From an uncultured Nitrospiraceae bacterium (GTDB lineage Bacteria; Hydrogenedentota; Hydrogenedentia; Hydrogenedentales; SLHB01): a DNA stretch of 64,000 nt. Shown here piece by piece: positions 19,937-61,330 of the stretch. Location of the stretch: positions 12,182 through 76,181 of the forward strand of contig CAZBQH010000200.1 of the NCBI GenBank assembly GCA_964493915.1, written 5' to 3'. Both the position numbers and the translations under genes were made by a program. Every line of letters starts with the position of its first letter. Within the stretch, counting starts at the first letter, position 1. The notes under the pieces are model-generated. The model saw only the letters and a program-made list of their open reading frames with translations, was not told where the DNA came from and did not search any database.

Positions 19937-19937
19937 C

Positions 19938-28539: not shown

Positions 28540-29946
28540 CTATCCGCGTGCAGCCATATCGCTGCAACCGGGAGCATCGGCCTGGTTGTCGGCCAGTTTG
28601 ACGAGCCAGTCAGGGTATCCGCCTTTCGCGTCGCTTTCCGCTACCTTGAACAACGAGCGTGCCACGTCCGGATGCTCGTTAGCGACATTGCGGACGAAGG
28701 GATCTGCGGCCTGCAAATCGTACAGAAGAATGCCGGTCCCATTGACCTTGCTGTTAAACCACCAGCGGTCGGTGACAACAGTCGGGGTCGAACCCCAGCC
28801 GATGGTTACGTGGTCGCGCGGACCCGGCTTGCCGCTCAGAGCGTAATCGAGGAACGAGGCGCCGTCCATTTCAGGCGGGATTGTTGCGCCGGCGGCGTCG
28901 AGGATGGTCGCCGTGATGTCCGTGTGCTGGACAAAGGCGTCGCAGGTCTTGCCGGCATGTTCCGCCTTGGGGAACCGGAGCATGAGGCACGTATCGTAGA
29001 CCTCCGGCATCGAGGGATACCCCCGCTTGCCCATGTAGTGGCGGTCGCCAATGCTATGGCCGTGGTCGCTGGCGAAGATGACAAGCGTGTTGTCCAGCAA
29101 GCCAAGAACGCGCATGGACTCCATGAAATAACCAAACCACCGGTCACATTGCGACACTGAGCCGCAGTAGTTGGCCTGAGTCCGTTTCAGCAGAGACGGG
29201 TCGAGTCCCGACACATCTGCATAGCTTGATTTCACCTGTTCCTGACCCTCCTCCGGCAGATACATCTTACGATAGTGGGAAGGTATGAGCCATGGCTCGT
29301 GGGGGTCAAAGGACTCGACTGTTAGGAAGAACCTGTCGGCGTCCTGATTCTGTTCAAGCCAGCGGGCCGCCTCGCGCAAGACGCGCGGGGAGAAGTAGTC
29401 GGCCTCCTCGTGGCGGTCGCGAATATTCGTGATGCAACGCTGGATAAACTCAATGGTCGCCTCATTCTGCAGTTCTCTCGGCAGCCAGTAGTCGAGTTCT
29501 TCCTGGGTGAGTCGCGGACCCGAGAGATAGGGGTCGTTTTCCTGGCCCCGCAAAAAGGTCCACTGGTGGAACCCACGCGTATAGTTTTTCGACGGCTTGA
29601 ACATGTGGTAGAGGTCGGCGATAAGACCTGTCCGGTAACCCGCTTCGCTGAGGAGTTCGGCCAGAGTCGGCTGCTCCTCGGGAATTGGCCCCCAAGCCGG
29701 CGCCCCGACAAAGTCGCCTTTAAGCCGGAAATCGCTGTTGTGGAAGGGGTAGCACCGTCTGCCTGTATAAAGGGCCCGCCGCGCCGGCAAAGTCGGGAGC
29801 GACTCCGGATAGGCCCGGGTCATAATCAGCGATTCTTTGGCAAAGGCGTCGAAGTGAGGAGTCTTGAGGGGCCACCAGGGGGCGGGGCCATACGCGTTCA
29901 TGCAATCCTTACGCAGCGAGTCAAATACGACGAGGACGATGTTCAT
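28540..29946 (-). CDS. sulfatase-like hydrolase/transferase (alkaline-phosphatase superfamily), cytoplasmic, Thr at nucleophile position
   Basis: 468 aa. Metal-binding N-terminus VVFDSLRKD. The sulfatase signature region reads TLPARRALYTGR, i.e. T-x-P-x-R instead of C/S-x-P-x-R. No signal peptide; the RBS AAAGGGGAAAA lies upstream. Confidence 0.7.
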   Translation of the reverse strand: MNIVLVVFDSLRKDCMNAYGPAPWWPLKTPHFDAFAKESLIMTRAYPESLPTLPARRALYTGRRCYPFHNSDFRLKGDFVGAPAWGPIPEEQPTLAELLSEAGYRTGLIADLYHMFKPSKNYTRGFHQWTFLRGQENDPYLSGPRLTQEELDYWLPRELQNEATIEFIQRCITNIRDRHEEADYFSPRVLREAARWLEQNQDADRFFLTVESFDPHEPWLIPSHYRKMYLPEEGQEQVKSSYADVSGLDPSLLKRTQANYCGSVSQCDRWFGYFMESMRVLGLLDNTLVIFASDHGHSIGDRHYMGKRGYPSMPEVYDTCLMLRFPKAEHAGKTCDAFVQHTDITATILDAAGATIPPEMDGASFLDYALSGKPGPRDHVTIGWGSTPTVVTDRWWFNSKVNGTGILLYDLQAADPFVRNVANEHPDVARSLFKVAESDAKGGYPDWLVKLADNQADAPGCSDMAARG

Positions 29947-32468: not shown

Positions 32469-32666
32469 CGGCGCCTCCAGGGAACGAGGGCCGTCTTTTG
32501 CGGAGCGTAAAGCTCCTTGGGCGCCCAGCCGGGGCTGGCGTTCAAGCTCGAGTTGATAGGTGGTCGGTCTGAATCTTCCCGATGCAGTACAGGCAACAGC
32601 CGTCCCCTCAAGGCTATGGACGGATCTCTTTTCCTCTTCGCGTAGAGTAGAGGAAACTGGATGCGG

Positions 32667-32704
32667 GCAAAACACGGCGCGTAACGCACGGACCCATGGC
32701 GTTA
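32667..32704 (-). terminator. putative intrinsic terminator of the entericidin-like gene
   Basis: Stem GTAACGC (32680-32686) pairs with GCGTTAC (32698-32704, overlapping the stop) across an 11-nt loop. Downstream on the minus strand is GUGUUUUG (32667-32674). Confidence 0.3.
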
Positions 32705-32842
32705 CTGGGTTACATCTTGGAGCTTCTCGCCGCCGCGTTCGATGTCTTTTCCCATGCCGCGGATTGTGTGGCACCCTCCAATGCTGACAACCACCATCAC
32801 TAGCGCCACAGCAATCAGGACAATCTTCTTAACTCCACGCAT
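32702..32842 (-). CDS. entericidin EcnA/EcnB-family small lipoprotein
   Basis: Absent from the ORF track (46 aa). The reverse-complement reads AGGAGG-9 nt-ATG…: MRGVKKIVLIAVALVMVVVSIGGCHTIRGMGKDIERGGEKLQDVTQ*. This gives a lipobox (SIGG-C) followed by the entericidin-like NT-RG-G-DI-G motif. Confidence 0.55.
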   Translation of the reverse strand: MRGVKKIVLIAVALVMVVVSIGGCHTIRGMGKDIERGGEKLQDVTQ

Positions 32843-33831: not shown

Positions 33832-35490
33832 TTAGAACCCGTAGGGGCTGCTGCCGCCCGAGCTGTCGCTCGAGCCGCCGTATGTTCCGTACCCCCCGCC
33901 CTCGCTGTAGTCCGGGAGAATCGGCTGGGCGTTCGGATGACGGCTCTCATTCGAGCTTGTGACACGAATGGCGGGTTTGTCTTCGAAAGGGCACTTGTTC
34001 TCGCAGATGCCGCATCCAATGCACAGGGACGGGTCTACATGGGGTTGCTTGACTGTTTTCACGCTGCCATCGCGCATGGGGACCTGCGCCTCGATAAAAT
34101 AGATGGCCTTCGTCGGCAGGGGGCAATGCTCCTCGCAGACAATGCAGTCTCTGCCGTATGCGTAGGGCAGACAACGCGACGTATCAATAGACGCAAGCCC
34201 CAGCTTTACCTTCTGTTTCTCCTCCATGGAAAGGGGCTGGATGGCTTGCGTTGGGCACACTTGGCCGCAGAGGTTGCATTCATACGCACAGTAACCGATC
34301 TGGGGATCGAGACGCGGCGTCCATATGCCTTCAATGCCCGCCTCGAAAAGCGTCGGCTGCAAGCCATTGGTTGGGCAGACCCGCATACACAAACCGCATT
34401 GTATGCAGCGCTGGAGAAACTCGCGCTCTCCCCGTGCGCCAGGCGGGCGGATTAAATCCTTGTTGTAAGTTCGGGCTTGGGCTTGCGGGCTCAGCCGAAA
34501 AGCGAGCAGCGCTGCCAATCCCCCTGCCCCCGACGCGAGCATTGCGCGTTTTCCGAGGTCGAGCTTTGCTTTCGTGGGCGACTTAAACGGCGACCCGAAA
34601 CCAAAAGCCAACCCTTTCTCCGGGCAAGACGGCACGCAGTTCCAGCACATAAAGCATTCGGACGGCTGCCATTTGCCAGGCTTTTCCGGGGATGCTGCAC
34701 CTTGGCAAACGGCGGCGCACTCCCGGCATCCCGTGCAGGCGCCTTCGCCAGGCTTCAACCGAAGTACGGGGCGTCTGGCGACAAGACCCAGCAATGCCCC
34801 CAGGGGACAGATGTATCGGCACCAGAACCGCCTGCGAACAAGGTTCAACCCAAGTATGCCGATGAATACGCCGGCAACCAGCAGCGCGTTGCGAAAGGCT
34901 TGTCCCTTGACTGCAAACACCTGCTCGCGGAAAAAGCCATAGACCGGCTCCGTGATCGAGGTAATGTGAAAAGGTCCGATTGCTGGGTCCGATTGAAACA
35001 CGGCAGTGGACCCGTCTTCAATGGCGTACTGTGCAGCCGGGAGCACAAAGAACGTTAAGCTGCGATAGGTCAACGAAATGGGATCAAGCACCCCAAACCA
35101 ATGGACCCCGAAGACCGCCATCACGAGCAACGCCACGAGTAGATAGTACTTGGCTCTTTGCCACTTCGAGAAACGCTCGATTCGCCGCCGCCGGAACCAG
35201 CTCATCATGGTGTTCAGCGTGCCGAGAGGGCAGACCCACCCGCAGAACACCCGGCCGAACAGAGCGGTAACGGCCAAAGTCAGCACAGCGAGCAGCGCCC
35301 CTATTGCCACGGTGTGGGCCGATAGCAGCGTTCCCAGCACGATGAGGGGGTCCGCGTCGAAGAAAAGCTGCATCCCGCGGCTGGCTGTAGTGGAATCGTT
35401 CCTTGCTGCCCCTACGACAAGCCAGAAGAACAACAGGAGGAAGCTCCCTTGGACGAGGCGCCGAATCCATCTTATCCAGACTGGGCTCAC
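33832..35490 (-). CDS. NapH/MauN/NosR-type membrane polyferredoxin (4Fe-4S)
   Basis: 552 aa. Several N-terminal TM helices carry the two CxxxCP motifs typical of NapH-type proteins (FCGWVCPLG, CRYICPLG). The C-terminal half carries at least four CxxCxxCxxxCP ferredoxin motifs and a Gly/Ser-rich tail. Confidence 0.75.
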   Translation of the reverse strand: MSPVWIRWIRRLVQGSFLLLFFWLVVGAARNDSTTASRGMQLFFDADPLIVLGTLLSAHTVAIGALLAVLTLAVTALFGRVFCGWVCPLGTLNTMMSWFRRRRIERFSKWQRAKYYLLVALLVMAVFGVHWFGVLDPISLTYRSLTFFVLPAAQYAIEDGSTAVFQSDPAIGPFHITSITEPVYGFFREQVFAVKGQAFRNALLVAGVFIGILGLNLVRRRFWCRYICPLGALLGLVARRPVLRLKPGEGACTGCRECAAVCQGAASPEKPGKWQPSECFMCWNCVPSCPEKGLAFGFGSPFKSPTKAKLDLGKRAMLASGAGGLAALLAFRLSPQAQARTYNKDLIRPPGARGEREFLQRCIQCGLCMRVCPTNGLQPTLFEAGIEGIWTPRLDPQIGYCAYECNLCGQVCPTQAIQPLSMEEKQKVKLGLASIDTSRCLPYAYGRDCIVCEEHCPLPTKAIYFIEAQVPMRDGSVKTVKQPHVDPSLCIGCGICENKCPFEDKPAIRVTSSNESRHPNAQPILPDYSEGGGYGTYGGSSDSSGGSSPYGF

Positions 35491-36425
35491 GCGAGCGCGA
35501 TTTCCTTATAGCGAAGCTTCTTGTAATCGATTTGGCCAAGCCCTGCATTGTGACCGGACACGATGGTTCCGATTTCCTGAGGGTTGTAGCCCAAAAGAGA
35601 CGCGCCGAAGGCGTCGAGCGCGACGATATCCGTCCCTGCAACGACCGTATCCGCTCGTTTCACATCGGCCAGGTTGCCTCCTGTGGGGCCGTTGGCCGTC
35701 AACAGCCGGATGGCGTCAAGCACACAGAGTCTTGGCTTCATGAACAGCGAGATATCTGTAATAGTGGTGGGGAGATCCTGGTGGAATTTCGCCCGGTTGT
35801 CGACAACGCCCATGTAGTTTTTCATACACAGCGTAACCGTTGTGGCGCTGTGATGTTTGGCAATAGGCACGTTGATCACCAGGTCACAGTCCGTGATCTC
35901 CGTGTAGACAGGGATTGATTTGAGGCCCTTGCCGCCGATCTCGGTCTCGCGGAAGCGGCTCGGGTCGATATAGACCACCTCGGCGCCGGCCTCTTTTGCA
36001 GCCTGCTCGATACCGCTACGGGGGTAGGTTTTTGTAATCTCATTGCAGGGGTGATCGCCGACCTTCACGTTTTTGGCACCCGCCTTGTAGCACAGCTCGA
36101 CAAGTGCTGCAACAACGGCCGGGTTGGTCGTGGCCGCTTGTTCAGGTCTGCGATCCCACGCAATGTTCGGCTTCACCCAGACCACGTCGCCCTGGTTTAC
36201 GAAACGCTTCATCCCGCCCAGCGCGTCCATCGCCGCTACGGTCAGCTTCCGGGCCATCTCGGCGACGCCCTCATCTTCTACAGATGCGCCTTTCCAACGG
36301 CAAACGGCCATGTCAAGGGGCGCATCTACTGCTTCCTGAGCGGATACGGCCTGACTGGCCAGAGTCATTGCACCGCTCGCCGCGACCGTCTGTTTGAGGA
36401 AATCCCGTCGTGTTTTCCTGGACAT
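35487..36425 (-). CDS. Tat-exported DUF362 domain protein
   Basis: 312 aa. Twin-arginine signal MSRKTRRDFLKQTVAASGAMTLASQAVSAQE. The remainder resembles DUF362, which is often found beside ferredoxins. It overlaps the polyferredoxin start by 4 nt. Confidence 0.6.
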   Translation of the reverse strand: MSRKTRRDFLKQTVAASGAMTLASQAVSAQEAVDAPLDMAVCRWKGASVEDEGVAEMARKLTVAAMDALGGMKRFVNQGDVVWVKPNIAWDRRPEQAATTNPAVVAALVELCYKAGAKNVKVGDHPCNEITKTYPRSGIEQAAKEAGAEVVYIDPSRFRETEIGGKGLKSIPVYTEITDCDLVINVPIAKHHSATTVTLCMKNYMGVVDNRAKFHQDLPTTITDISLFMKPRLCVLDAIRLLTANGPTGGNLADVKRADTVVAGTDIVALDAFGASLLGYNPQEIGTIVSGHNAGLGQIDYKKLRYKEIALA

Positions 36426-38380: not shown

Positions 38381-39976
38381 ATGCAGATAACAGTCCAGAG
38401 GAATCATGTTGCCGAGTTCACTTTCGAGTCCACTGCGCAACATAGCGACCCCTACAACGAACTCGACCTGGACGTTGTGTTCACATCGCCGTCCGGCCGC
38501 GAACTGCGCGTGCCGGCGTTCTGGGACGGCGGCGGTTTGTGGAAAGTGCGCTTTTCGGGCAGCGAGCTCGGCGTCTACCGTTTCGAGTCGGTTTGCTCGG
38601 ATCGGGATGACCGTGGCCTTCACGCGCAGTCCGGCTCGCTTAGTGTGGTCCCATCAACGGGGCAATCCGATCTCATGGGCCATGGGCGCATCCGTGTGGC
38701 GGCTGACAGACGGCACTTCGAGCATGCGGACGGCACCTCCTGCTTCTGGGTGGGGGATACCTGGTGGATGGGGCTGACAAAACGCCTTGACTGGCCTCAC
38801 GGGTTCAAAGAACTTGCGGCGGATCGGGTCGCCAAGGGTTTCAACACCATCCAGATTGTCGCGGGACCGCTGCCCGATATGGATGCCTGGGATCCTCGGG
38901 GCGAGAACGAGGCGGGCCATCCCTTCGAGCGGGATTTCCTACGGATCAACCCCGCCTTCTACGACCTTGCCGATCTGAAGATTGCGCACTTGGTTGAGGT
39001 CGGGCTGATGCCTTGCATCGTGGGCATGTGGGGCTATTATCTTCCCCAGATCGGCGTCGATCGCGTCAAGCGGTTCTGGCGTTACCTCATTGCGCGTTAT
39101 GGGGCTTATCCGGTTGTATGGTGTATCTGCGGAGAAGGGAAAATGCCTTACTACCTCTCCAAACAGCCCGAGAAAGACGCAACCTTCCAGTTGAAAGGCT
39201 GGACGGAAGTCATGGCTCATGTGCGCGAGATCGACGCTTACCACAACTTGATCACCATCCATCCTACGCAGTTTGGACGGGAACAGGTCGAGGATCCGGG
39301 CCTTATGGACTTCGAGATGCTGCAGACGGGCCACGGTGATTTTGACAGCATCGTGCCCACGATTCAGTCTGTGCGTAAGGCAGTCGAGGCCCAGCCGCGG
39401 ATGCCTGTGGTGAATGCAGAGGTGAACTACGAGGGGATCATGGGGCGCGCGTGGCAGAACGTGCAGCGCTTGTGCTTCTACCATTCTGTTCTGAATGGAA
39501 CGACGGGCCACACTTATGGAGCCAATGGGATTTGGCAGATGAGCACCAAGGAACAGCCCTACGGGCCGTCGCCTCACGGCCGTTGCTGGGGCAATACCCC
39601 CTGGCGTGAGGCAGCACAGTTGCCCGGATCGCGGCAGATTGGCTTGGGAGGCCGTTTCATCCGGCGCTTCGCGTGGTGGGAATTCGAGCGGCATCCCGAA
39701 TGGGTTAAGCCGCCTGCCAATGGGGATGCTGCCTATGCATCGCTTGCCGTCGGTATCCCGGGGAAGTTGCGCATCGTCTATGCGCCTTTTGTTTGGGATC
39801 CGCCAATTCTCACGGCCTTCGAGCCGCACGTGAAGTATGAGGCAAGTTACTTTGACCCGATCCGAGGAAGCGATATTGCCTTAGGCGCTGTGGAACCCGA
39901 TTCGAACGGATTGTGGTGTCCGCCCCTGCCCCCTGAAATCCATGACTGGATTCTCGTAGTCCAGGCTTCTGACTGA
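38381..39976 (+). CDS. DUF5060 + DUF4038 (GH140-like) putative glycoside hydrolase
   Basis: 531 aa. The N-terminal beta-sandwich (…FTSPSGRELRVPAFWDGGGLWKVRFSGSELGVYRFE…) is followed by a TIM-barrel region containing FWVGDTWWMG, as in DUF4038/GH140 proteins. No signal peptide. Confidence 0.55.
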   Translation: MQITVQRNHVAEFTFESTAQHSDPYNELDLDVVFTSPSGRELRVPAFWDGGGLWKVRFSGSELGVYRFESVCSDRDDRGLHAQSGSLSVVPSTGQSDLMGHGRIRVAADRRHFEHADGTSCFWVGDTWWMGLTKRLDWPHGFKELAADRVAKGFNTIQIVAGPLPDMDAWDPRGENEAGHPFERDFLRINPAFYDLADLKIAHLVEVGLMPCIVGMWGYYLPQIGVDRVKRFWRYLIARYGAYPVVWCICGEGKMPYYLSKQPEKDATFQLKGWTEVMAHVREIDAYHNLITIHPTQFGREQVEDPGLMDFEMLQTGHGDFDSIVPTIQSVRKAVEAQPRMPVVNAEVNYEGIMGRAWQNVQRLCFYHSVLNGTTGHTYGANGIWQMSTKEQPYGPSPHGRCWGNTPWREAAQLPGSRQIGLGGRFIRRFAWWEFERHPEWVKPPANGDAAYASLAVGIPGKLRIVYAPFVWDPPILTAFEPHVKYEASYFDPIRGSDIALGAVEPDSNGLWCPPLPPEIHDWILVVQASD

Positions 39977-48084: not shown

Positions 48085-48933
48085 TCAGAAGCGTATCGAT
48101 ACGCCGACAAACGGGCCCTCCATGGTGAGATCGGCTTCCTTTTCCTCCTCAGCTCCAAGAAGTTTCGGAACTAACGGCAGGTCGTCGAACTCTCCAAAGC
48201 GGCCATTGATAGCAAACCAACGATAGCCTCCTTCGATCGCAAAATGGTCCCCAAATGGAAGGCGCAGTCCCGCTTCAGCGTCGAAGAGATGGCCGTAGTC
48301 TCCAGCATACATCCCCGCGAATTCCCCAAATACCTCGAGGTACTTGGTGGGGCGGCCGTTAAACCCCAACCCGACTACCGGAAGCCCAATTGTTCCATCG
48401 AAGCTGTGCTCCTCGGGCACGAAGTAATTCCACACGTCATAGTGTTTGGCCGACGCATCGAGACTGAACACCGCGGCATCCAGAACGGTGTCGAGGTGAA
48501 AACGTTCTGTAGGGTCTCCGATAATGCTCCATCGCCAGCCGACACGTCCATAATGCAGCTCGATGTCGCTCTCGACGTAGCTCGCGAGCCCGGCCAGCTC
48601 TCCTTCGAACAGCAGGGGCTCGACAACAGTATTCTCACCGCTGAAATCCAGATAGACATAACGAAACACAAGAGCATGGTTGCGGGTGAGCTGCAAACGG
48701 ATCCGTGCGTCGAGACTGTCTTCATCATCGATGCCGAGCTTCCGGTCAAGGTCAAGCCGGTCGCCTATAAGGTTGGTAATCAGACTTGTATCGCCGTCAA
48801 GGTTCGCGCGCCAACCTCGAACAGTAAGCCCAAGCCGTTGCAGACTGCCCCCGTCTTCAGTCTGAGCTATAGCGCTTACACCGGGCGCAATCAGCGCCAA
48901 CACAACAAGCCACAAACGCATATTCATGCACAT
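48085..48933 (-). CDS. outer-membrane beta-barrel protein (hypothetical)
   Basis: Start set at the ATG at 48933 after AAAGGGAGGAAGG (MCMNMRLWLVVLALIAPGVSAIAQ signal peptide). Alternating hydrophobic beta-strand pattern, ending in the C-terminal aromatic residue …GVSIRF. Confidence 0.5.
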   Translation of the reverse strand: MCMNMRLWLVVLALIAPGVSAIAQTEDGGSLQRLGLTVRGWRANLDGDTSLITNLIGDRLDLDRKLGIDDEDSLDARIRLQLTRNHALVFRYVYLDFSGENTVVEPLLFEGELAGLASYVESDIELHYGRVGWRWSIIGDPTERFHLDTVLDAAVFSLDASAKHYDVWNYFVPEEHSFDGTIGLPVVGLGFNGRPTKYLEVFGEFAGMYAGDYGHLFDAEAGLRLPFGDHFAIEGGYRWFAINGRFGEFDDLPLVPKLLGAEEEKEADLTMEGPFVGVSIRF

Positions 48934-49138
48934 GGGACCTTCCTCCCTTTGAACGTCTCTCGACCCTGCCTTGCTTCCGAGCAAGGCAGGACTTTTGTGA
49001 TGCGGGCCGTCCCGCATCTGGTCTGAACGCTTTCTAGAATAACTACATCGAATTGTAGCAGGGTATTCCGCATTCGGCAACCATGGATTCCCCGATTTTG
49101 CCGTCGGGCAATGACTGACTCGAGTGTACTCACGCCGC

Positions 49139-51562
49139 TCACGTCAGCTTTTCGTAAGGCCACATGTCGGTGCCGCCGTCCAACACGCGCACATCGGGAA
49201 AGTCCGCAGCCTTCAGAATCAGGGCCGCCTCGTAGCCCCGAAGCGAGATGTTGCAGAACGTGACGATGGTCTTGGACTTGTCTAGCTCGTGGAGACGCCT
49301 GCGAAGCACTCCCAAGGGAATGTTAATCGAGTTGGGAAGCCTGATCTCCTCGAACTCTTCCTGCGACCGCACATCCAAGAGAGTCACGGCCGTTCCGCCG
49401 GCGATCATTGCGCGATGGACCTCCATCGGCGTGATGCCCGTCAAGTAACCGTCAAGCTTGTTGCGGGCCACGTTCGCGGCCGTAATCAGGTTATCCATGG
49501 CCGGCGAGTACGGAGGCGCATAGCATAGGTCGGCGTTGGCAAGCTGGTCCACGGTCATTCCCGCCGCAATGGCCATAGCCGCGACATCGACGCGCTTGGC
49601 GCCGTCGCCCGGCCCCGTCACCTGAGCGCCCAGCACTTTGCGTGTGGCCGCATCCACAACAAGTTTGAGCATGAGTGGCTGCGCATCTGGCATGAAGTGG
49701 GCTTTGTCGGGAGCAGGGACCAGCACGGCGACGGCGTCGTAGCCGAGTGCCTGGGCCGAGGCCTCGGTCAACCCAGTGCGCCCCACGCAATACTCGAAAA
49801 CCTTGCAGATCGTGCTGCCGAGTATCCCGGGGAACTTCTCGCGGCCTCCACATAGGTTGACGGCAGCCACGCGGCCTTGCTTATTGGCCGTCGAGCCGAG
49901 AGGCATGTAGATGGGCCTTCTCGTCACGATGTCCCTGCATTCCACGCAGTCGCCTGCTGCATAGATGTCCGGGTCGCTTGTGCACATGAATTCGTCGACT
50001 TTGACGGCGCCCGTTTCGCCTATGTCAAGGCCGGCTGCCCGTGCAAGTCCTACGGAGGGCTGAACGCCGACAGCCATGATCACCATGTCGGCTGAGAGCT
50101 TGCCGGTTTGGGTCACAACCTGCGTAGACCATTCCTCGCCTTCAATAGCGGTGACTTTCGTGCCCGTCAAGACCCTGACACCGTTGGCTTCCATGTGTCT
50201 CTCAACCAGCTTGGCCATTTCCCAATCAAGCATGCCCAGAACCTGCGGCATCATCTCGACCATGCTGACACGGCATCCTGATTCCACCAACGCCTCCGTT
50301 GCTTCGACCCCGATAAGTCCTCCGCCTACAATTACAACGTCGCGCGCTTTGCCCTCACTGAGCATGGAACGGATGCCTTCGGCATCATGGACCCCGTGCA
50401 GCGTAAAGACATTAGGGAGATCGATTCCCGGCAAAGGAGGCTTGACAGGCGTTGCGCCCGTAGCCAAAACCAGTTTGTCATAGTCGAGCCAGGCGTCTTC
50501 CGATGTCAGGAGATTGCGTACAAGGATGCGCTTGTTTTCTCGATCGATCTCGATGGCTTCCGTCTCGTTGTGCACATGCACGTTTTTCACTTTCTGAAAG
50601 AAGACCGGGTCGCGCACCGCTCCTGCGGCGGTCGACATCAACTCGCGCTGTGAACGGACCATTCCTGAGACGTAGTAGGGAAGACCGCAACCCGCATAGG
50701 ACAAGAAACGCCCCCTTTCGATCACTGTAACTTCGGTGTCCGGACGAATACGGATAATCTTGGATGCCACTTTGGGGCCTGCCGTGACCCCACCGACGAT
50801 CACCACCTTAAGAGGCTGTCTCGCTTTGCTTTCTTCTTCAGCTTTTGCCGCCGCAGGTTCCGCCGCAGCAAGCAGAACCGAAAACTCAGCGCCTCCAAGA
50901 TCAGACGTCCCGACCGTGATCGATCCGCCCGCCGTCTCGAACACAGTTTTGGCGAAAGCCAGCCCCAGGCCGACCCCGGGCCGCGCAGAACCTTCTGCAG
51001 TTGCACTGCGAAAAAAAGGTTCGAAGATATGCTCTCGTTCCTCCGCCGGGATTCCTATGCCGGAGTCGTCAACTGTGAGACAGACGAAATTGCCTGGCGC
51101 CCGTGCAAGATTCAGCCGGACCCGCCCATGTTCAGGCGTGTACTTGACAGCGTTGCCGACCAAGGCCGCCACGGCTTCCGTCAGCGCAGGCGCATCGCCC
51201 TTCACGAAAACATCGCCCGCCTCGTTTACCGCCTCGAAGTCAATGCCTTCCTCAGCAGCTTTCTGAAGAAACAACGCATGAACGCGGTGGAGGAGTTGGC
51301 CCAGATTGCAGATGCTCTGCGTCGCGGACGGAGAGTCCAGCTCTCGTACGACATACAGCATCCGCTGCACCGCTGCGATCGCTTCGTCGCAGCGCGCGTT
51401 GGCCCGCTCCACCAGAGTGCGTTGCTTTGGCGTCATCGCGCCGGCATACCCCCCGAGGAGCGTCCGCAAATGGCTGCTCACCGCGCTCAGGGGCGCCTGC
51501 AACTGGTGTGCAATCAGACCTGCTGACCGAATGGCTGTGTCGTGCGGTTTGCTCTGACTCAT
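49139..51562 (-). CDS. fusion protein: histidine-kinase core (HisKA+HATPase) + CoA-disulfide reductase-like FAD/NAD(P) oxidoreductase + rhodanese domain
   Basis: 807 aa. Residues about 1-240 carry the H-box AHQLQAPLS, N-box LVGNAVKYT, G1 DDSGIGIP, F-box FEPFF and G2 GVGLGLAFAK, with no TM or sensor domain. Residues about 250-700 carry VVIVGGVTAGPKVASK (FAD), the redox Cys in SYAGCGLPY, and VVIVGGGLIGVE (NAD). Residues about 700-807 form a rhodanese domain with the active Cys in TFCNISLRG. Confidence 0.7.
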   Translation of the reverse strand: MSQSKPHDTAIRSAGLIAHQLQAPLSAVSSHLRTLLGGYAGAMTPKQRTLVERANARCDEAIAAVQRMLYVVRELDSPSATQSICNLGQLLHRVHALFLQKAAEEGIDFEAVNEAGDVFVKGDAPALTEAVAALVGNAVKYTPEHGRVRLNLARAPGNFVCLTVDDSGIGIPAEEREHIFEPFFRSATAEGSARPGVGLGLAFAKTVFETAGGSITVGTSDLGGAEFSVLLAAAEPAAAKAEEESKARQPLKVVIVGGVTAGPKVASKIIRIRPDTEVTVIERGRFLSYAGCGLPYYVSGMVRSQRELMSTAAGAVRDPVFFQKVKNVHVHNETEAIEIDRENKRILVRNLLTSEDAWLDYDKLVLATGATPVKPPLPGIDLPNVFTLHGVHDAEGIRSMLSEGKARDVVIVGGGLIGVEATEALVESGCRVSMVEMMPQVLGMLDWEMAKLVERHMEANGVRVLTGTKVTAIEGEEWSTQVVTQTGKLSADMVIMAVGVQPSVGLARAAGLDIGETGAVKVDEFMCTSDPDIYAAGDCVECRDIVTRRPIYMPLGSTANKQGRVAAVNLCGGREKFPGILGSTICKVFEYCVGRTGLTEASAQALGYDAVAVLVPAPDKAHFMPDAQPLMLKLVVDAATRKVLGAQVTGPGDGAKRVDVAAMAIAAGMTVDQLANADLCYAPPYSPAMDNLITAANVARNKLDGYLTGITPMEVHRAMIAGGTAVTLLDVRSQEEFEEIRLPNSINIPLGVLRRRLHELDKSKTIVTFCNISLRGYEAALILKAADFPDVRVLDGGTDMWPYEKLT

Positions 51563-51990
51563 ATCCGATTCGCCAAGTTCTTAGCCGATCATGTCAAACT
51601 GCTCCGTATTGAGCCTCGAGAGAAGATCTAATTCATGGGTCATAGGGTAGTGCACCAGGGATTCGCTGCTGAAGAACGCAAGCCTGACGCGCACATTCTC
51701 TTTGCGTCCAACAAGGTGTCCAGGCCCCTGCTCCCAATCCGTCTCATGATCACTTGCAGCAAGAAAACCTCCTCCTCTCGCGTTGTCGGTATATTACATG
51801 GCAGAGACCGTTCTCACAAGGGTTCGCTTCATGAGCAGGATGCAACCTGTCCTTTTCGCAGCGCGAGTTGCCGAGAGCTCCCAGCGTGTTGCTTTGTCTT
51901 GTTTTACGGGGAATTCCCCGGACGTAGCCGCCTGAATGGCCGTCTTCCATCTGGAACGCGTTCAACCCCTTCCTTGGATCCTGGCTCGGC

Positions 51991-52020
51991 TTGCGGATGA
52001 GAGCCGGATTGCCGTATACT
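51991..52020 (+). promoter_or_regulatory. sigma70-like promoter candidate immediately upstream of the lytic transglycosylase gene (TTGCGG-18 nt-TATACT)
   Basis: TTGCGG at 51991-51996, TATACT at 52015-52020. The ATG at 52028 would lie at the predicted transcription start, implying a leaderless mRNA, unless GTG 52055 is the real start. Confidence 0.25.
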
Positions 52021-52027
52021 TGTGCCG

Positions 52028-55871: not shown

Positions 55872-55972
55872 CCAATCGCGGGCATACTCCTTGCCGCGCG
55901 TTCTTAAAACAGCGATATGCTACTATGGTGTTCGATGTCGGGGCGATAGCTGCCGGCAAGGAAGGATCGGCC

Positions 55973-57811
55973 ATGGTTGCGAACAGACAAGCTCTTATGT
56001 CTTTGCGTCTTGCTCTATCTCGTCGGGAAAAGGCATTGTCGCTCGCCCAGGAATCCAAGGAGGCCTTGACCGCGGGCCATATTGACAAAGCGCGCCATGA
56101 CATGCTGCAAGCCTTTTACTCGGGCCATCTCCAATCCGCCGAAAACCGCCTGCGCGACCTGCGCCAGGAGCACGCGAAGCGAATCGCCGAACTCGACACC
56201 GTTCTTGAGGAACTGCAAACACGTCAGAAAGAGGTGCAGGAAGGTGCAGCTTCCGGCCTTGTGAGGGTTTCTGAAGTGAATCGCCGGCATCGCAAACTTG
56301 CGAAACGAATCGGCGAGCTGAAAGAAGAAGCGGCCTTCGAGCGGCGCTTAGTTGAAGCCGATTCTCCTGATGCAGTGGGCGGTTTTATCGATATGCCTCT
56401 CGATGACTACGCCGCTGAGGCACCGTCGGGTCCTGCGGCCTATTCCACGGAGGAATGGCTGTTCACATGCGTGCTGTCCCTGCTCATGCCCTTCGCCTTG
56501 CTCTTGCCGTGGGTCATCGTACTCGGGGTCTCGTGGCGTCTGAGCGACTTGCCGGCCTTTCTTGAGATGGTGGGGTTGGAAGAGGTGCCGGAAACCGCTC
56601 GTTTCGTGTGGGCTGTGTATGCATTACTTCCTTTGGTTGGGTTGCCTTTCGCATTGTGGCGCAACCTCCAGAAGTCAGGTGCTTGGTTGATAGTCGTAGG
56701 CGCCGCCTGTACAGGCGCCGTTGTCACTCCGCTGGCAGCTATAGGCATCAATCCCAACATCGAGGCGTCCATCGATCCAATCCAACTTTTTGCGGGATTG
56801 CGAATCGGATCTCTATCTTACCTCGGCGGCGCGGTTCTGATGATGCTCTTGGGCGCACGCCGGATACGGTTGAGCAAAGGACCCCTGAAGTCTTCCTGGA
56901 AAGGCGTAGTGGTCCTTGTGGTCTCGGCTACGGTTCTTCTCCTGTTGGCAGGCGCCCTTTTCTCGACGGCGCCCGGTCACGCCTGGATTGCCATGGAAGC
57001 GGGCCCTGCACGAGAAGCAGGGCGGAGCGTGCGGCTTCACTTCGAAAACACCGGCACGCATACGGCTACCGTGCATCTGCCTTGGCCGGAGAATCGCGCG
57101 GCCGTAATCGAGGCGGGCCAGGAGAAACGTCTTTTCGGCGTGACAGTATGGGTGCGTGAACGGGGCGAGCGCGATTTCCATATGTATCCGCACTCGGATG
57201 TCTGCTGGGATTTTGGTAGTGTGCCTGCCCCCGAGAACAACGGCTTTCAACTCGAGCACGGCGTTTCCGTGCAGGCTCAATTTCACTTGGGCAGGTTGGA
57301 GACCGAGGGGATAGACGCCCTGCAGGTACGTTTTCGTCTGACCCGGGGCGACGGCCACCTTCTTCAATCTCTAGATGTTGACGTTCCGGAAATCAGTGCC
57401 GCAAGCGCCCGGCCTGCACCCCTCGCGGGGATGCCGGACATTGCTTCTGCACCCCAGCCTCCGCAATCGGAGACGCTTTCCCCGCCGCCATCCGCTATCG
57501 CAACAGAACAAACCGGCGCCTCTTCTGCAGAAACCGGAGACAGGGGATCGCCCGTGTGGTCCGTCGCTTTCAAAGGCACCATTGGAAACAACGCGATCTT
57601 AGCGATACGCGAAGCGGCTGATGGGAAAGTCGAGTCGCGGTCCGTCGCGGCCGGCGACACGGCAACTGGAGACTGGTTGGTCGAGTCTATTGAAGCGTCC
57701 GGTGCTGAAGTTGTGCTTCGCAATCGCTATACCGGGAAGCGTGTCACGTTGAAGCGGGGAGCTGGAGAAAGCCCCTTGCCCGACACAAAAGCTGCCTCGA
57801 GCGGCGGGTAG
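55973..57811 (+). CDS. hypothetical membrane protein with N-terminal coiled coil
   Basis: The track starts at 55925. ATG 55973 has AAGGAAGGA 6 nt upstream. About 120 aa of coiled coil, then a block of several TM helices, then a C-terminal soluble region that is Pro/Ser-rich near the end. Confidence 0.45.
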   Translation: MVANRQALMSLRLALSRREKALSLAQESKEALTAGHIDKARHDMLQAFYSGHLQSAENRLRDLRQEHAKRIAELDTVLEELQTRQKEVQEGAASGLVRVSEVNRRHRKLAKRIGELKEEAAFERRLVEADSPDAVGGFIDMPLDDYAAEAPSGPAAYSTEEWLFTCVLSLLMPFALLLPWVIVLGVSWRLSDLPAFLEMVGLEEVPETARFVWAVYALLPLVGLPFALWRNLQKSGAWLIVVGAACTGAVVTPLAAIGINPNIEASIDPIQLFAGLRIGSLSYLGGAVLMMLLGARRIRLSKGPLKSSWKGVVVLVVSATVLLLLAGALFSTAPGHAWIAMEAGPAREAGRSVRLHFENTGTHTATVHLPWPENRAAVIEAGQEKRLFGVTVWVRERGERDFHMYPHSDVCWDFGSVPAPENNGFQLEHGVSVQAQFHLGRLETEGIDALQVRFRLTRGDGHLLQSLDVDVPEISAASARPAPLAGMPDIASAPQPPQSETLSPPPSAIATEQTGASSAETGDRGSPVWSVAFKGTIGNNAILAIREAADGKVESRSVAAGDTATGDWLVESIEASGAEVVLRNRYTGKRVTLKRGAGESPLPDTKAASSGG

Positions 57812-57827: not shown

Positions 57828-59894
57828 CTAGCTCGACGGCGTAGGCATCCCGTCCATCGCCCCAGTGTCTGGGAATACGGTGATTGCGGCCGCGAGGCAG
57901 CATGCTGCATTCAGTGTGTCCGGGTACACGGTGGGCGCCAGAGGATCAGCCTGGGCGGCTGCCCCTGCCCCTGACCCTCTAGCCATGGCGTCTCGCATGT
58001 ACGGCCCAAGACGGGCGAGTTCCTTCGGTTCGTCCCGCCAGAGCATTGCCAGGTTCAGCAGAGTCTTGGCCGTTTCATGGGGCGCCATCTCGTCGAGGCC
58101 CTCGAGAGCCTTCTCGGCAAGGTGTTCCCATGGCGCCGATCGAGGGCGGCCGGGCCGGGCGACATCCGCGGCCCAGTAGTCAAGAGCGCCTGGAACCGTC
58201 CAATGTCCCGTGCCGTCTAGGCAATGGTAGTTGATAAGCGCGCGTAACTCGCTGCGTCTTTCATTCCATTCCTCTTGCTTGAAGCCAAGGGCGTCGGCGA
58301 TTTCGATGGCCGCGCTGATTCCGATGTAGGTAACAGCGACCAGGCCGTTGCTCTGAGCGTCGCGCCAACGTGCAGGGTCGAACGAGTGAAGAGGCATGCG
58401 GGTCCTTAGGTCGCACCAGCGGACCAGAAAGTCTGCACCTTGCTGAACGCTCGGCCAGACACCCTCAAGAAAGGCCCGCCGCCGTTCTTTATCTAAGCGG
58501 CGGCTGTGCTCGGAAATGTCCCAGAGCGTCCAGGCAGTGCCGTCTACCTCGAGTACCGGATAAGGCAACGCCTCCGTGCCGTCGGCGTAGACCGTGGCCG
58601 GCACAGAGCCGGCAGGTCGGCCCGGTTGTGTCGTTTGGCGCACAAGCCCGGCCCCGAAAAGGACATGCCGCTCTGCAAGCTCGGGGAATCCCGCTTTATC
58701 GAGGGCCAACGTGATCCATGGGGCATGCCGCGCGAAGTGCATCGCCAACGGCGGCTGAGGAGTAGGGTTGCGCACAACAGCGCCCGTTTCCCGATCCATG
58801 GCGCTTAACAGCGTCATCAAGCAGCCTTCGGCCATGGCGCGAATGGCAGGATCCGGCGAGGCAGGCAGTGTCGCCTTGGCCTGAACCGCCGCGATGCGGC
58901 TTCGGGCGTCCTGCAAAAGACCAGCCCAACCTTGCACACAGGCTGCGGCCAGCCGCTCCGATACGGTCTCCCATGTTGGGCCAAAGGCCGTGTAGACGGT
59001 CGCTTCGCTCAGGGAACTGCCCGAATCGTCCTCGCGCTGCGTGGGCGGGATTGCTATGACTGAACTGCAGGTGCCCACCGCAGCCTGATCCTTTGCCAGC
59101 TTGCCCGCACTCGCCTGCGTGTAGGGCGATGCAGGCCCGGCGTCTGGTCCGCACTGGAACGCCTCCGCACCTGCGGAGGACGTATAGGCGATCCACACTC
59201 CCTCGCCGAAGGCGCGCCACGCTTCGCTTTCTGCCTTAGTCCTGATTAGCTCTCTGGCCTGTTGCCAGGACCTGCTGTTCAGGTCCTCGGGCCGGAAGTG
59301 GCAGATGCTCGTCCCAGTCCCCGTTGTGAAGACTGCAAAATCGTTCGCGCTGTCGAAAGCCCAGTCAGCGAGCGGCCATTCAGGGAGAACACGTGTGGCG
59401 GGGCAAAAGTTGGCGATCCAAAAGAACGTCTGGACCGGCCGGGCCGACTGTACGCGGATATGCACCCCGAACACGTCGTGCTCGGGGTGTACAAGAAGCT
59501 CCTGGGTGGCCGTAAAGTCCGGGTCCTTTGACCGCGTTGTCACCCGGAAGACGTAACCTGCCCGATCGGTTGACGCCGTTGCGTCGCCTGTGACCCCATT
59601 CAGCCAAAGGGTATTGTCGTCTATCCGCAGACCCCAGAACAGGCCATCTGCCGGCAGGGCGCCATACTGGGGCAGATTGCGGGAACGGGTGCGATAGCTA
59701 AGCTGGTCGCTGAGACCGGGGCTCGGCCAGCGGCACACTGTGATCCGCCCTGCGCCGTTCGCGCTAAGGGTCAACCGCCCATTGCCAAGAACAATCGCAG
59801 TATCCGGCGGACCAAAGATTTCTTCGAGAACGCCATACGACGGGGGTGCCGCGGCGAATGCCGCAAAAAAGAGGAGAGCAAGCGGCAATATCAC
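57828..59894 (-). CDS. secreted hypothetical protein, possible (alpha/alpha)6-barrel glycoside-hydrolase-like fold
   Basis: 688 aa. Signal peptide MILPLALLFFAAFAAAPPSYG, an N-terminal beta-rich region and a C-terminal helical region. Family assignment is tentative. Its start overlaps the upstream gene by 4 nt. Confidence 0.4.
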   Translation of the reverse strand: MILPLALLFFAAFAAAPPSYGVLEEIFGPPDTAIVLGNGRLTLSANGAGRITVCRWPSPGLSDQLSYRTRSRNLPQYGALPADGLFWGLRIDDNTLWLNGVTGDATASTDRAGYVFRVTTRSKDPDFTATQELLVHPEHDVFGVHIRVQSARPVQTFFWIANFCPATRVLPEWPLADWAFDSANDFAVFTTGTGTSICHFRPEDLNSRSWQQARELIRTKAESEAWRAFGEGVWIAYTSSAGAEAFQCGPDAGPASPYTQASAGKLAKDQAAVGTCSSVIAIPPTQREDDSGSSLSEATVYTAFGPTWETVSERLAAACVQGWAGLLQDARSRIAAVQAKATLPASPDPAIRAMAEGCLMTLLSAMDRETGAVVRNPTPQPPLAMHFARHAPWITLALDKAGFPELAERHVLFGAGLVRQTTQPGRPAGSVPATVYADGTEALPYPVLEVDGTAWTLWDISEHSRRLDKERRRAFLEGVWPSVQQGADFLVRWCDLRTRMPLHSFDPARWRDAQSNGLVAVTYIGISAAIEIADALGFKQEEWNERRSELRALINYHCLDGTGHWTVPGALDYWAADVARPGRPRSAPWEHLAEKALEGLDEMAPHETAKTLLNLAMLWRDEPKELARLGPYMRDAMARGSGAGAAAQADPLAPTVYPDTLNAACCLAAAITVFPDTGAMDGMPTPSS

Positions 59895-61330
59895 GGTTTT
59901 TCCCCGCTTGAATGTCTCGAGTGTGATGCAAGATGCCCCGTGAAATCGAGGGAATCCTTCTCTACGGTTGCGGCGATTTCGAGAGCGCCCATCTGACCCA
60001 GGGCGCGAAACTTCGGGATGACCTTCTCCTCAATCTCCTGTACGCCTGTTTCAGGCAAAAGCTGGCTCAGAGCAGCATGGCGCGCCAACTCTGAGAAAAC
60101 CTCGGAAGTTTCCTTCCAATCCACGCGCAATGCTACATCCGCATCAATCTGTTCAAGAACAGGCTCATTTCGTGCAAGCTCCGCCATCAAAGGCTCCTGG
60201 CTCGCCGCGAGCCAATACTCCTCCTTGTTACACAGGCACAATAGCAAGGCCTCGCCAATGAGCGGCGCAACGACTCCGGGCGCTCCATGCCACTCGTGGG
60301 GCAGAGCGTCCAGTTCAGCCGCAAGCGGCGCCAATGGATGATCACCAACGCCGGATTGGACCCGGCGCATCAACAGCGCCGCCTTTGGAACAGGCGTGGT
60401 CTGCGACGTGTCCACGCCCGTAATACCGAACGAGCACTCCGCCACGCCTTGGTCCCAACCCTCGGGCAGGCCTTGAATGTCCCATGAAGCCCACATCGCC
60501 CACGCCGCCTTTACGACGGCATCCACGACGCTGCAATCGCGGAAAGGCTCGTACAGAATCTGTACAACCGATGCGATGTCGCGCCACCGTGTCGCGGTGA
60601 CGGTGAGAAGTGCGGAGGAGGGCCAAGGCTTTGTCATCGTAAGGGGGACTTCGCGGTCCGTACAGACGCCCGTAATCTGGCCCGTGACGGGGAGGCCCTC
60701 TGCCGCGCGAACCACGAGTTTTGTTTTCGGTGTTTGTTCCCAGCGAAACGAAACTGTGTCATGCTGTTTCGGACGCTCCGCCAAGTAAGCCGGCGCGCTC
60801 AAACACTGCTTGACATACCTTTCAGACTCAGAGAATATAAGCGATCCGTCGCGCCACGCATAGTACAAGCCGCGAAACGTGGGGAGGGAACTGCCGGTTG
60901 GCGCAGGCCCAACCAACCGTTTCAGGAAAAGAACGGAACGGAGCAGAAGCCCAGGGCGCACGCAGGCGCCTGACTGGTTCTCTGACCCAGCGATAAGAAG
61001 CCTCGGGCCGAGCCATAGACTCCAACGAGAAGGGGTGGGCCGGATTCCATAGGCCAAACGGACGGCCCGTTCGAAATCGCGCAATGGCGCGGGAGCTTCT
61101 TTGTTGAAGGCGCGTACAGCCTCGGTGGCAGCGGCCATACGCCAGAATCGGGGGAAGTCGTGGGCAGCGAAAGACCATGCAGCGTCTCGAGGCGCATACA
61201 ACGCGCCTGGCGCCGTTTTCAGGCCCGCGTCAACATGATTGAAGAGAAATACCGCAGCTATGCATGCTGCTAAGAACAGCCACCGCCGCGCCGTACGCGC
61301 CATTCTCGACGTCGCCTCGCGCAATCGCAA
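59891..61330 (-). CDS. hypothetical membrane-anchored protein
   Basis: 479 aa. N-terminal TM (WLFLAACIAAVFLF), then a large soluble domain. No recognisable catalytic motif. Confidence 0.45.
   Translation of the reverse strand: MRLREATSRMARTARRWLFLAACIAAVFLFNHVDAGLKTAPGALYAPRDAAWSFAAHDFPRFWRMAAATEAVRAFNKEAPAPLRDFERAVRLAYGIRPTPSRWSLWLGPRLLIAGSENQSGACVRPGLLLRSVLFLKRLVGPAPTGSSLPTFRGLYYAWRDGSLIFSESERYVKQCLSAPAYLAERPKQHDTVSFRWEQTPKTKLVVRAAEGLPVTGQITGVCTDREVPLTMTKPWPSSALLTVTATRWRDIASVVQILYEPFRDCSVVDAVVKAAWAMWASWDIQGLPEGWDQGVAECSFGITGVDTSQTTPVPKAALLMRRVQSGVGDHPLAPLAAELDALPHEWHGAPGVVAPLIGEALLLCLCNKEEYWLAASQEPLMAELARNEPVLEQIDADVALRVDWKETSEVFSELARHAALSQLLPETGVQEIEEKVIPKFRALGQMGALEIAATVEKDSLDFTGHLASHSRHSSGEKP

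Follow-up and report, generated by a model that had tools for sequence, protein, structure and literature searches.

A conserved fusion of a histidine-kinase core with an atypical H-box to a C-terminal persulfide-reductase-type flavoenzyme, a candidate enzyme-as-sensor protein

The subject of this study is one gene in a stretch of 64,000 nucleotides of contig CAZBQH010000200.1 (assembly GCA_964493915.1), from an uncultured bacterium that GTDB places in the Hydrogenedentota; we call the whole stretch the window, and give window coordinates throughout, with residue numbers referring to the encoded protein. The gene lies on the minus strand as a single unbroken open reading frame (ORF) with an ATG start (49139..51562; stop codon at 49139-49141) and codes for a protein of 807 residues, in agreement with an earlier note on this DNA that had been made from the letters alone. 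Its product begins with a dimerisation and phospho-acceptor (DHp) helical hairpin (residues 6-76; 51335..51547, minus strand), as delimited by predicted helices and by alignment to known kinases. An ATP-binding (CA) domain follows (residues 84-234; 50861..51313, minus strand), recognised by its Pfam match, by counts of conserved alignment columns and by a predicted alpha/beta fold. A variable linker with the sequence EPAAAKAEEESKARQPL, predicted to be disordered (residues 235-251; 50810..50860, minus strand), then leads to a pyridine-nucleotide-disulfide oxidoreductase related to the NADH-dependent persulfide reductases (Npsr) and the CoA-disulfide reductases (CoADR), a region assigned from Pfam, NCBIfam and a structural match (residues 252-705; 49448..50809, minus strand). 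The chain ends with a rhodanese domain, assigned from Pfam (residues 706-807; 49142..49447, minus strand).

The earlier note had advised a domain search, and this search detected the HATPase_c domain of a kinase core, the flavoprotein and the rhodanese in the order that had been proposed. The Pfam matches were to HATPase_c (residues 122-232; 79.5 bits against a cut-off of 26.4 bits), Pyr_redox_2 (252-547; 216.8 bits), Pyr_redox (409-483; 74.1 bits), Pyr_redox_dim (586-691; 68.3 bits) and Rhodanese (717-801; 57.7 bits). In NCBIfam, the kinase models PhoR, PnpS and RppB align over residues 17-231, and the equivalog models of CoA-disulfide reductase cover residues 252-700 with scores under their cut-offs (TIGR03385, 419 bits against 578.8; NF007123, 390.2 against 458), as expected since the Npsr enzymes are relatives of CoADR and not equivalogs. 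Both sequence motifs on which the flavoprotein and rhodanese assignments had been based are in place. SYAGCGLPYY occupies residues 288-297 (50672-50701), with the codon of Cys292 at 50687-50689, and TFCNISLRGYE occupies residues 768-778 (49229-49261), with the codon of Cys770 at 49253-49255; the active-site loop of the rhodanese thus reads C770-N-I-S-L-R775.

A Pfam scan of the 807-residue protein found no PAS, GAF, HAMP, transmembrane-associated, receiver or other input domain, in line with the claim that these are missing. Moreover, an in-frame stop lies seven codons upstream of the ATG, which excludes a longer N-terminus and hence an N-terminal sensor. N-termini are short throughout the family, only 10-20 residues preceding the H-box, the segment around the phospho-acceptor histidine, in the fusion loci that we compared. 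Longer ORFs at five of these loci (L075, L076, L029, L009 and L065) were considered as a sign of a hidden N-terminal sensor and rejected, as they are low-complexity, high-GC read-through.

The structure of the full chain, whose prediction had also been advised, was modelled with AlphaFold2 (AF2) as a monomer, using a 40-sequence family alignment as input, and resolved into the DHp-CA unit, the linker and the flavoprotein-rhodanese module (mean predicted local distance difference test score, pLDDT, of 84). In the model, the DHp hairpin is formed by helices 6-36 and 45-76, with His19 on the first of them, the CA domain is an alpha/beta domain spanning residues 84-234, and the flavoprotein-rhodanese module is predicted with high confidence. 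The pLDDT falls below 50 at residues 237-247, within the linker, whose mean pairwise identity in the fusion family is 22 %. Because this segment of about 17 residues is variable and predicted to be disordered, any coupling between the two modules must act through domain-domain contacts and not through a signalling helix.

That the gene is an assembly chimera, or a pair of genes masked by a frameshift, is so improbable that we give it practically no weight. The earlier note had called for the domain junctions, at about 50840 and about 49460, to be checked for a chimera, and an independent contig and an ortholog refute one. A database entry of 592 residues (P0002) is 100 % identical to the window protein, and its contig is colinear with the window across 7,911 nt, with 98.1 % identity and zero indels. 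Since the copy on that contig begins at residue ~172, the contig spans both junctions; the entry has merely 592 residues, a length that might suggest a shorter gene, but this is a truncation at the contig end. An ortholog with 89 % identity, from another sample, has an ORF of identical length, 807 residues. When the two genes were compared by the Nei-Gojobori method, the ratio of nonsynonymous to synonymous substitution (dN/dS) was lowest in the flavoprotein (0.08) and stood at 0.22 in the kinase module and at 0.30 in the rhodanese; every domain is under purifying selection. The linker gave a ratio of about 1.1, from the few sites of its 17-18 residues. Dozens of independent full-length genes, described below, also speak against an artefact. 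The gene is split in one metagenome-assembled genome (MAG), the Hydrogenedentes MAG UBA2224 (L041, 9878-12315), in which a frameshift yields ORFs of 193 and 659 residues; this could be taken in favour of a gene pair, but it is confined to a single MAG and reflects a sequencing error or a pseudogene. At another locus (L023) the fusion stops early, at 720 residues. An ORF of 176 residues on the opposite strand, inside the fusion gene (50736-51266, plus strand), has blastp "homologs" in 40 loci; we rejected it as an overlapping gene, as its matches only reflect that a conserved, GC-rich gene can also be read on its other strand.

The earlier note had also proposed a search for the same architecture, and many genomes turned out to carry it, so that the fusion belongs to a large conserved family and is not a rarity. 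A search of 5.8 billion proteins, clustered at 90 % identity, returned more than 120 clusters of proteins with 790-839 residues and the same domain set, 56-62 % identical to the window protein over 98-100 % of its length. In the databases they are labelled "FAD-dependent oxidoreductase" or, for a UniRef entry from Anaerobaca lacustris, "histidine kinase". At the 50 % identity level they form one large cluster and about six distant full-length clusters (35-44 % identity). In a scan of one genome per GTDB species, the best 80 loci were examined, and about 50 of them carry full-length fusions. They come from Phycisphaerae/Sedimentisphaerales, Pirellulales, Planctomycetaceae, Brocadiia, Hydrogenedentota, Verrucomicrobiota and Victivallales/Lentisphaerae, and from a few bins labelled Thermodesulfobacteriota, Anaerolineales and Paceibacterota that are possibly mis-binned. 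A neighbour-joining (NJ) tree was built from the enzyme modules, and in it the window protein clusters with Hydrogenedentes sequences; as far as this one gene can tell, the host is thus probably a hydrogenedentote. Thus, the fusion is a real, widespread and conserved variant of two-component proteins, built of well-known parts. That A. lacustris is in culture and carries the gene makes direct testing possible. The search also returned proteins of about 800-860 residues with another layout, in which an Npsr module is N-terminal (1-540) and is followed by about 270 further residues (P0176, P0182, P0199, P0202, P0208, P0218 and P0222 among others).

The kinase module carries the hallmarks of a HisKA-type core together with an unusual H-box. 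His19 is invariant (118/118 ungapped sequences), and the DHp-CA core aligns to the kinases WalK, VicK and EnvZ of the Protein Data Bank (PDB), and also to CpxA, with the histidine in register. The boxes of the CA domain are likewise invariant: N (N137, in NAxKYTP), G1 (D166-S-G-x-G), F (F183 and R185) and G2 (G196-x-G-L-G-L). In contrast to the canonical H-E/D-x-x-T/N-P, the family H-box reads A-H-Q-[LM]-x-S-P, and that of the window protein A-H19-Q20-L-Q-A-P-L (51488..51511, minus strand), as established by column counts. The residue following the histidine (H+1) is therefore Gln20 and not an acidic residue; it is Gln in all 118 ungapped family sequences and, at the 50 % level, in six of seven fusion clusters; P0145, the most remote of them, has His-Glu. 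At H+4, the window protein and its 89 % ortholog have alanine (Ala23), neither Thr nor Asn, and 108 of 120 relatives have serine, which may substitute for threonine. A further departure is Ala133, the counterpart of CpxA Asn356, four residues before the Asn of the N box. The Pfam model HisKA (PF00512; cut-off 26.9 bits) scored the window protein at 20.7 bits, a second fusion protein (P0112) at 26.5 and P0145 at 32.5, and we ascribe the sub-threshold score to the atypical H-box. Of the "complete HisKA/HATPase core" described in the earlier note, then, the DHp hairpin, His19 and the CA boxes stand, while the HisKA match is sub-threshold and the H+1 position is Gln.

An acidic residue at H+1 acts as the general base that activates the histidine, and has been reported as strictly conserved in HisKA kinases (PMC8292422, PMC3904827, PMC7005713). 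Mutation of this residue abolishes the kinase activity of NtrB, CrdS and Agp1 (PMC7005713, PMC8292422, PMC3904827). DrBphP, which naturally lacks an acidic H+1 residue, has no detectable kinase activity and is a signal-regulated phosphatase (PMC8292422). The module is conserved, under selection and, as a DHp-CA unit, of the ATP-binding kind, but its phosphoryl-transfer chemistry is probably atypical. Since the place of the general base beside His19 is taken by an invariant Gln, it may well be a weak kinase, or act mainly as a regulated phosphatase or phosphotransferase, and not be a classical strong autokinase. The direct coupling to phosphotransfer that the earlier note had envisaged may accordingly amount to control of a phosphatase or of a weak kinase, and not to classical kinase activation. 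With its invariant His-Gln H-box, the family also offers a natural experiment on what the general base does in HisKA kinases. On the second DHp helix, the pair R57-C58 (51389..51394, minus strand) stood out by its conservation in the main cluster, and only there (Arg57 invariant, Cys58 at least 90 % conserved). We did not adopt Cys58 as a universal persulfide-accepting sensor cysteine: the distant fusion clusters lack it, so that as a sensing residue it does not define the family. Cys58 and Cys770 were never lost together (0 cases observed against about 3.7 expected, a weak signal that carries no phylogenetic correction).

The C-terminal two thirds of the protein qualify structurally as an enzyme of the Npsr or CoADR-rhodanese (CoADR-RHD) type, with a putative activity. 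The A. fulgidus protein "NoxA-3" (PDB 6PFZ) aligns from end to end with residues 250-807 (E value 3e-151, 47 % identity), and a Foldseek comparison with this structure gave a target-normalised TM-score of 0.95 and a root-mean-square deviation of 2.0 A. The assignment of the flavoenzyme to the CoADR-rhodanese persulfide reductases, made in the earlier note, is thereby strengthened, with 6PFZ as the closest solved relative. The protein in this structure is AfNpsr, an NADH-specific persulfide/polysulfide reductase that binds CoA tightly, has a redox-active Cys42, a flexible lid loop (TTYGAVR) and, in its rhodanese, Cys519, and also shows NADH oxidase activity (PMC7969121). In the window protein, the lid-loop segment 309-318 contains STAAGAVR, which aligns with TTYGAVR and is partly conserved; it is exactly here that the confidence of the AF2 model is low. 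Cys292 is invariant in 120/120 relatives, in 49 fusions and in 28 free-standing enzymes, and aligns with the cysteines of AfNpsr and of the Bacillus enzyme BaCoADR-RHD. The motifs for FAD (GxGxxG, residues 255-266) and NADH (GxGxxG...E436) are invariant too, including Glu436, which ends the second Rossmann strand; a glutamate in this position is indicative of a preference for NADH over NADPH. From the identity to AfNpsr, one would expect tight CoA binding and NADH-dependent reduction of persulfide and polysulfide.

Free-standing enzymes of about 560 residues occur in the same phyla and are 62-71 % identical to the enzyme module of the window protein (loci L045, L047, L050-L054, L056, L057, L061-L064, L066-L070, L072, L073, L077-L083 and L086). 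In the enzyme-module tree, which is an NJ tree without support values and in which rooting artefacts are possible, they fall among the fusions, and the fusions of the Brocadiia are basal. Such nesting would imply that the kinase module was gained or lost repeatedly. No position of the enzyme module discriminates fused from free enzymes at the 80 %/80 % level. As the free enzymes nest among the fusions and no position separates the two, the fused enzyme does not appear to have degenerated into a ligand-binding shell; its similarity to AfNpsr and to the free enzymes suggests that it is probably catalytically competent. Four further cysteines (430, 571, 586 and 592) were considered as fusion-specific and rejected, because they are equally conserved in the free enzymes.

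The rhodanese domain is less constrained. Its catalytic cysteine is present in 28/28 free enzymes, as against 33/49 genomic fusions and 94/120 metagenomic fusions; the difference in retention between fused and free enzymes is significant in a Fisher test (p = 3e-4), although it reflects just 4-5 or so independent losses. Cys770 is replaced by Ser in the Brocadiia, where the loop Arg is lost too, and by Gly in two clades of Phycisphaerae/Sedimentisphaerales, one of which includes Anaerobaca; Ser is also found at two other loci (L016 and L046). The window protein retains both Cys770 and Arg775. Since the rhodanese cysteine is dispensable in many fusions, while Cys292 beside the FAD is invariant, a persulfide relay through the rhodanese cannot be the universal signal.

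We looked for a partner of the kinase module with a home-made receiver (REC) profile, built on CheY, PhoB, NtrC and Spo0F, and with Pfam, which was run on 43 of the 47 ORFs of 100 residues or more that greedy calling had yielded. In the 64-kb window, these searches found no receiver domain, no second kinase and no dedicated sulfur-metabolism genes, so that the lack of an adjacent response regulator, pointed out in the earlier note, extends to the entire window. Elsewhere, in a minority of lineages, single-domain receivers were found near the fusions. They are proteins of about 125-140 residues that match Response_reg only, have the signature residues DD, D, T and K, and form a family marked by two motifs, D[VL]MM after the Asp that accepts the phosphoryl group and [EQ]KP[VI] close to the C-terminal end. 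Of about 54 fusion loci, 7 have such a receiver next to the fusion or in its vicinity. In three loci of the Brocadiia it is operonic, lying directly upstream in the same orientation (L042, 9485-9958; L058, 9458-9973; L060, 9589-10008), and it overlaps the start codon of the fusion in the last of these. In two loci it is immediately downstream and convergent (L011, 2971-3345; L024, 4720-5094), and in two more it is found within 6-9 kb (L023, 3309-3860; L032, 13989-14402). A blastp comparison of the flanks of 54 fusion loci detected no recurrent neighbour family besides this receiver. The adjacency speaks for a true two-component function, in which the partner would be CheY-like. The single-domain receiver is a candidate cognate partner, which in the genome of the window would have to be encoded elsewhere.

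We propose that the enzyme module is the input of the kinase core, a reading to which, on the sequence evidence, we assign a probability of about 0.5. The protein would be a soluble, probably homodimeric, orphan two-component transmitter, whose only candidate input is an Npsr-type persulfide/polysulfide reductase flexibly tethered C-terminal to the CA domain. Both halves are obligate homodimers in characterised relatives, and the enzyme dimer would be held about 17 residues from each CA domain. The state of the flavoenzyme would be set by the supply of NADH versus that of sulfane sulfur (persulfide or polysulfide), or of another oxidant, at Cys292. The enzyme could alternate between a Cys292-S-S-CoA mixed disulfide and the NADH-reduced form, with corresponding positions of the lid and of the rhodanese. 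Its state would alter the docking of the enzyme dimer on DHp/CA, and this docking would shift the flow of phosphoryl groups at His19 toward or away from the single-domain receiver. Given the retained Cys770, sulfane sulfur is the leading candidate signal for the window protein. Which way the information flows, what the signal is and how kinase and phosphatase are balanced are inferences of ours. More tentatively, and with somewhat less than even confidence, we suggest that the fusions form a class of cytoplasmic two-component proteins, widespread in Planctomycetota, Verrucomicrobiota, Lentisphaerota and Hydrogenedentota, in which a turnover-competent C-terminal flavoenzyme gates phosphoryl flow at a His-Gln H-box and which signals to a dedicated single-domain receiver.

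Several observations weigh against this proposal. With an invariant Gln at H+1 and, in the window protein, Ala at H+4, competence as a kinase and as a phosphatase appears uncertain. The repeated loss of Cys770 would argue against a canonical rhodanese-persulfide relay as the common signal. Most loci, the window included, have no nearby receiver or any conserved neighbour. In the predicted structure, the disordered and variable linker offers no obvious route for allosteric transmission, and the model, being that of a monomer, is silent on a 2:2 assembly.

One of the features just mentioned, the fate of Cys770, bears on what the enzyme would sense. The input could be the NADH/NAD+ balance, or O2 or H2O2, acting through FAD and Cys292, with the rhodanese being mainly structural. 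The next structural relatives, the NADH oxidases and peroxidases, use sulfenic-acid chemistry, and AfNpsr itself has NADH oxidase activity (PMC7969121). Cys292 is invariant, and the rhodanese cysteine has been lost in 26/120 and 16/49 fusions and in 0/28 free enzymes. To judge from MAG titles and sample names, the host lineages appear to come mostly from sediments and digesters that lack oxygen, and for them contact with O2 would be a meaningful signal. Yet the window protein retains Cys770 and Arg775, the closest characterised enzyme favours persulfide and polysulfide, and the lid loop of the CoA site is partly conserved; we consider an input of this kind less likely than sulfane sulfur, but a serious alternative. 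The flow of information could also be reversed, the kinase-like module regulating the enzyme, which would then be the output, by binding ATP or ADP, by phosphorylation of His19 (for example, through back-transfer from a receiver) or by phosphorylation of the enzyme on Ser/Thr through its GHKL domain. This would fit the conservation of the enzyme, which equals that of the free enzymes (dN/dS of 0.08), the usual C-terminal placement of outputs in multi-domain signalling proteins, the Gln at H+1, which speaks against an efficient autokinase, and faint matches to HATPase_c_2 (RsbW-like, PF13581) in some relatives. However, without a fused receiver there is no known way for the phosphohistidine to act on an enzyme at the C-terminus, a DHp of HisKA type with an invariant His indicates His-Asp chemistry, and the receiver adjacency in several lineages fits a pathway with a separate output. 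Reversed flow is thus rather improbable.

The two modules could, finally, be uncoupled, the fusion just serving to co-localise or co-express a constitutive orphan kinase or phosphatase and a detoxifying enzyme, as in a "Rosetta-stone" protein. The flexible, poorly conserved linker would allow this, as would the easy gain and loss of the kinase module suggested by the nesting of the free enzymes in the NJ tree, and no enzyme residues were found that discriminate fused from free. Conversely, the fusion has been kept across several phyla, at 35-60 % identity and with a fixed domain order and length, a kinase core devoid of input would give an unregulated signal, and the relaxation of Cys770 is seen only in fusions, suggesting that the fused context has altered the constraints. 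We attach little weight to a mere co-localisation, and find it plausible that the enzyme acts as a sensor.

Compared with known systems, the fusion is unusual in the topology of its input and in its H-box. It resembles Npsr and CoADR-RHD enzymes (AfNpsr, 6PFZ; Shewanella loihica, 3NTA; B. anthracis, 3ICR; E. faecalis CoAPR, 8A56) in matching them over their full length, in the single redox cysteine in SxxxCGLPYY, the FAD and NADH Rossmann motifs with the acidic E436, the partly conserved lid loop and the C-terminal rhodanese with Cys and Arg. Unlike the characterised members, it adds an N-terminal DHp-CA module of 250 residues and has often lost the rhodanese cysteine within the family; unlike AfNpsr, the fusions have the conserved cysteines 430, 571, 586 and 592, which they have in common with free enzymes of the same clade. 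With the HisKA kinases (WalK, 5C93/4U7N; VicK, 4I5S; EnvZ, 4KP4; CpxA; HK853) it shares the DHp hairpin and the CA boxes. In contrast to these kinases, its DHp begins at residue 6, without an N-terminal input or transmembrane segment, its candidate input comes after CA, behind a disordered linker, and it has Gln at H+1, Ala133 at position -4 relative to the N box and a sub-threshold HisKA score. Deinococcus radiodurans DrBphP also has a HisKA-type output without an acidic H+1 and is a precedent for a phosphatase-biased HQ box, but it has His at H+1, Glu at H+4 and an N-terminal photosensory module. CheA, in which the regulatory domain P5 is C-terminal to the kinase domain P4, provides a precedent for a C-terminal input; it belongs to another kinase class, its phosphorylated His is on a separate domain, P1, and P5 is a CheW-like adaptor and not an enzyme.

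Among known systems that control gene expression in response to sulfide, sulfane sulfur or redox state, NreB (an Fe-S PAS kinase), TtrS, RsrS, SqrR and CstR are the closest in function to what we propose. In contrast to the fusion, they sense through PAS/Fe-S or periplasmic binding domains, or through pairs of reactive cysteines in a DNA-binding protein, and none has a complete flavoprotein reductase as input. Indeed, we know of no histidine kinase with a whole flavoprotein reductase as its input; to our knowledge, sensor modules C-terminal to the ATP-binding domain are rare, and bacterial sensing of reactive sulfur is known almost wholly from one-component repressors with reactive cysteines. 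Full-text searches of a literature collection with few subscription journals found no description of a fusion between a histidine kinase and a flavoprotein disulfide or persulfide reductase, and the view that this is not a described sensor class stands within the same scope. If the enzyme does gate the kinase, the family would show a new way in which metabolism feeds into two-component signalling, the signal being the turnover of an enzyme: the load of sulfane sulfur, or the flux of NADH and oxidant, would be read via a catalytic cycle and not by a ligand-binding domain. It would also open a way into how redox and sulfur are handled by little-studied, mostly uncultured bacteria of sediments and digesters, including relatives of the anammox bacteria.

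The gene downstream of the fusion gene (48085-49080, minus strand) codes for a protein of about 280-330 residues with a signal-peptide-like N-terminus, MRLWLVVLALIAPGVSAIAQ, and the C-terminal sequence ...VSIRF, and its product looks like an outer-membrane beta-barrel. The outer-membrane-protein gene named as a neighbour in the earlier note thus finds support in the signal-peptide-like start and the C-terminal Phe, and not in Pfam, in which it has no match; no counterpart was found beside the fusion in the other loci compared. Upstream, a divergent intergenic region (51563..52021), the presumed location of the promoter, separates the fusion gene from a gene for an SLT lytic transglycosylase. 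This region had been described as 460 bp long and of lower GC; it is there, with 459 bp, but its GC content is barely lower (0.54 against 0.58-0.62). Searches of these 459 bp found no Rfam family and no strong promoter or terminator, and weak consensus matches alone, among them one weak sigma-70-like match on the minus strand (51722-51695).

The window also contains housekeeping genes, coding for LepA, TypA, RecO, signal peptidases, Rpe, PyrG and KdsB. Genes for a heparinase II/III-like lyase (10628-13051, plus strand), a sulfatase (28540-29946, minus strand), a GH42-like protein (30006-32774, minus strand) and an apiosidase-like protein (38381-39976, plus strand) make the host look like a degrader of (sulfated) polysaccharides, to judge from these gene assignments. 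Polysaccharide degradation is typical of Hydrogenedentota and Planctomycetota. Three ORFs of 628, 688 and 479 residues (55925-57811, plus strand; 57828-59894 and 59891-61330, both minus strand) are Pfam-negative at E <= 1e-3. Following lepA is a tandem pair of signal-peptidase-I (Peptidase_S26) genes (18671-20699, plus strand). A gene for a DUF362 protein of 312 residues is followed by one for a protein of 552 residues with multiple 4Fe-4S ferredoxin-type domains (33832-36425, minus strand), and the two products may form a redox pair.

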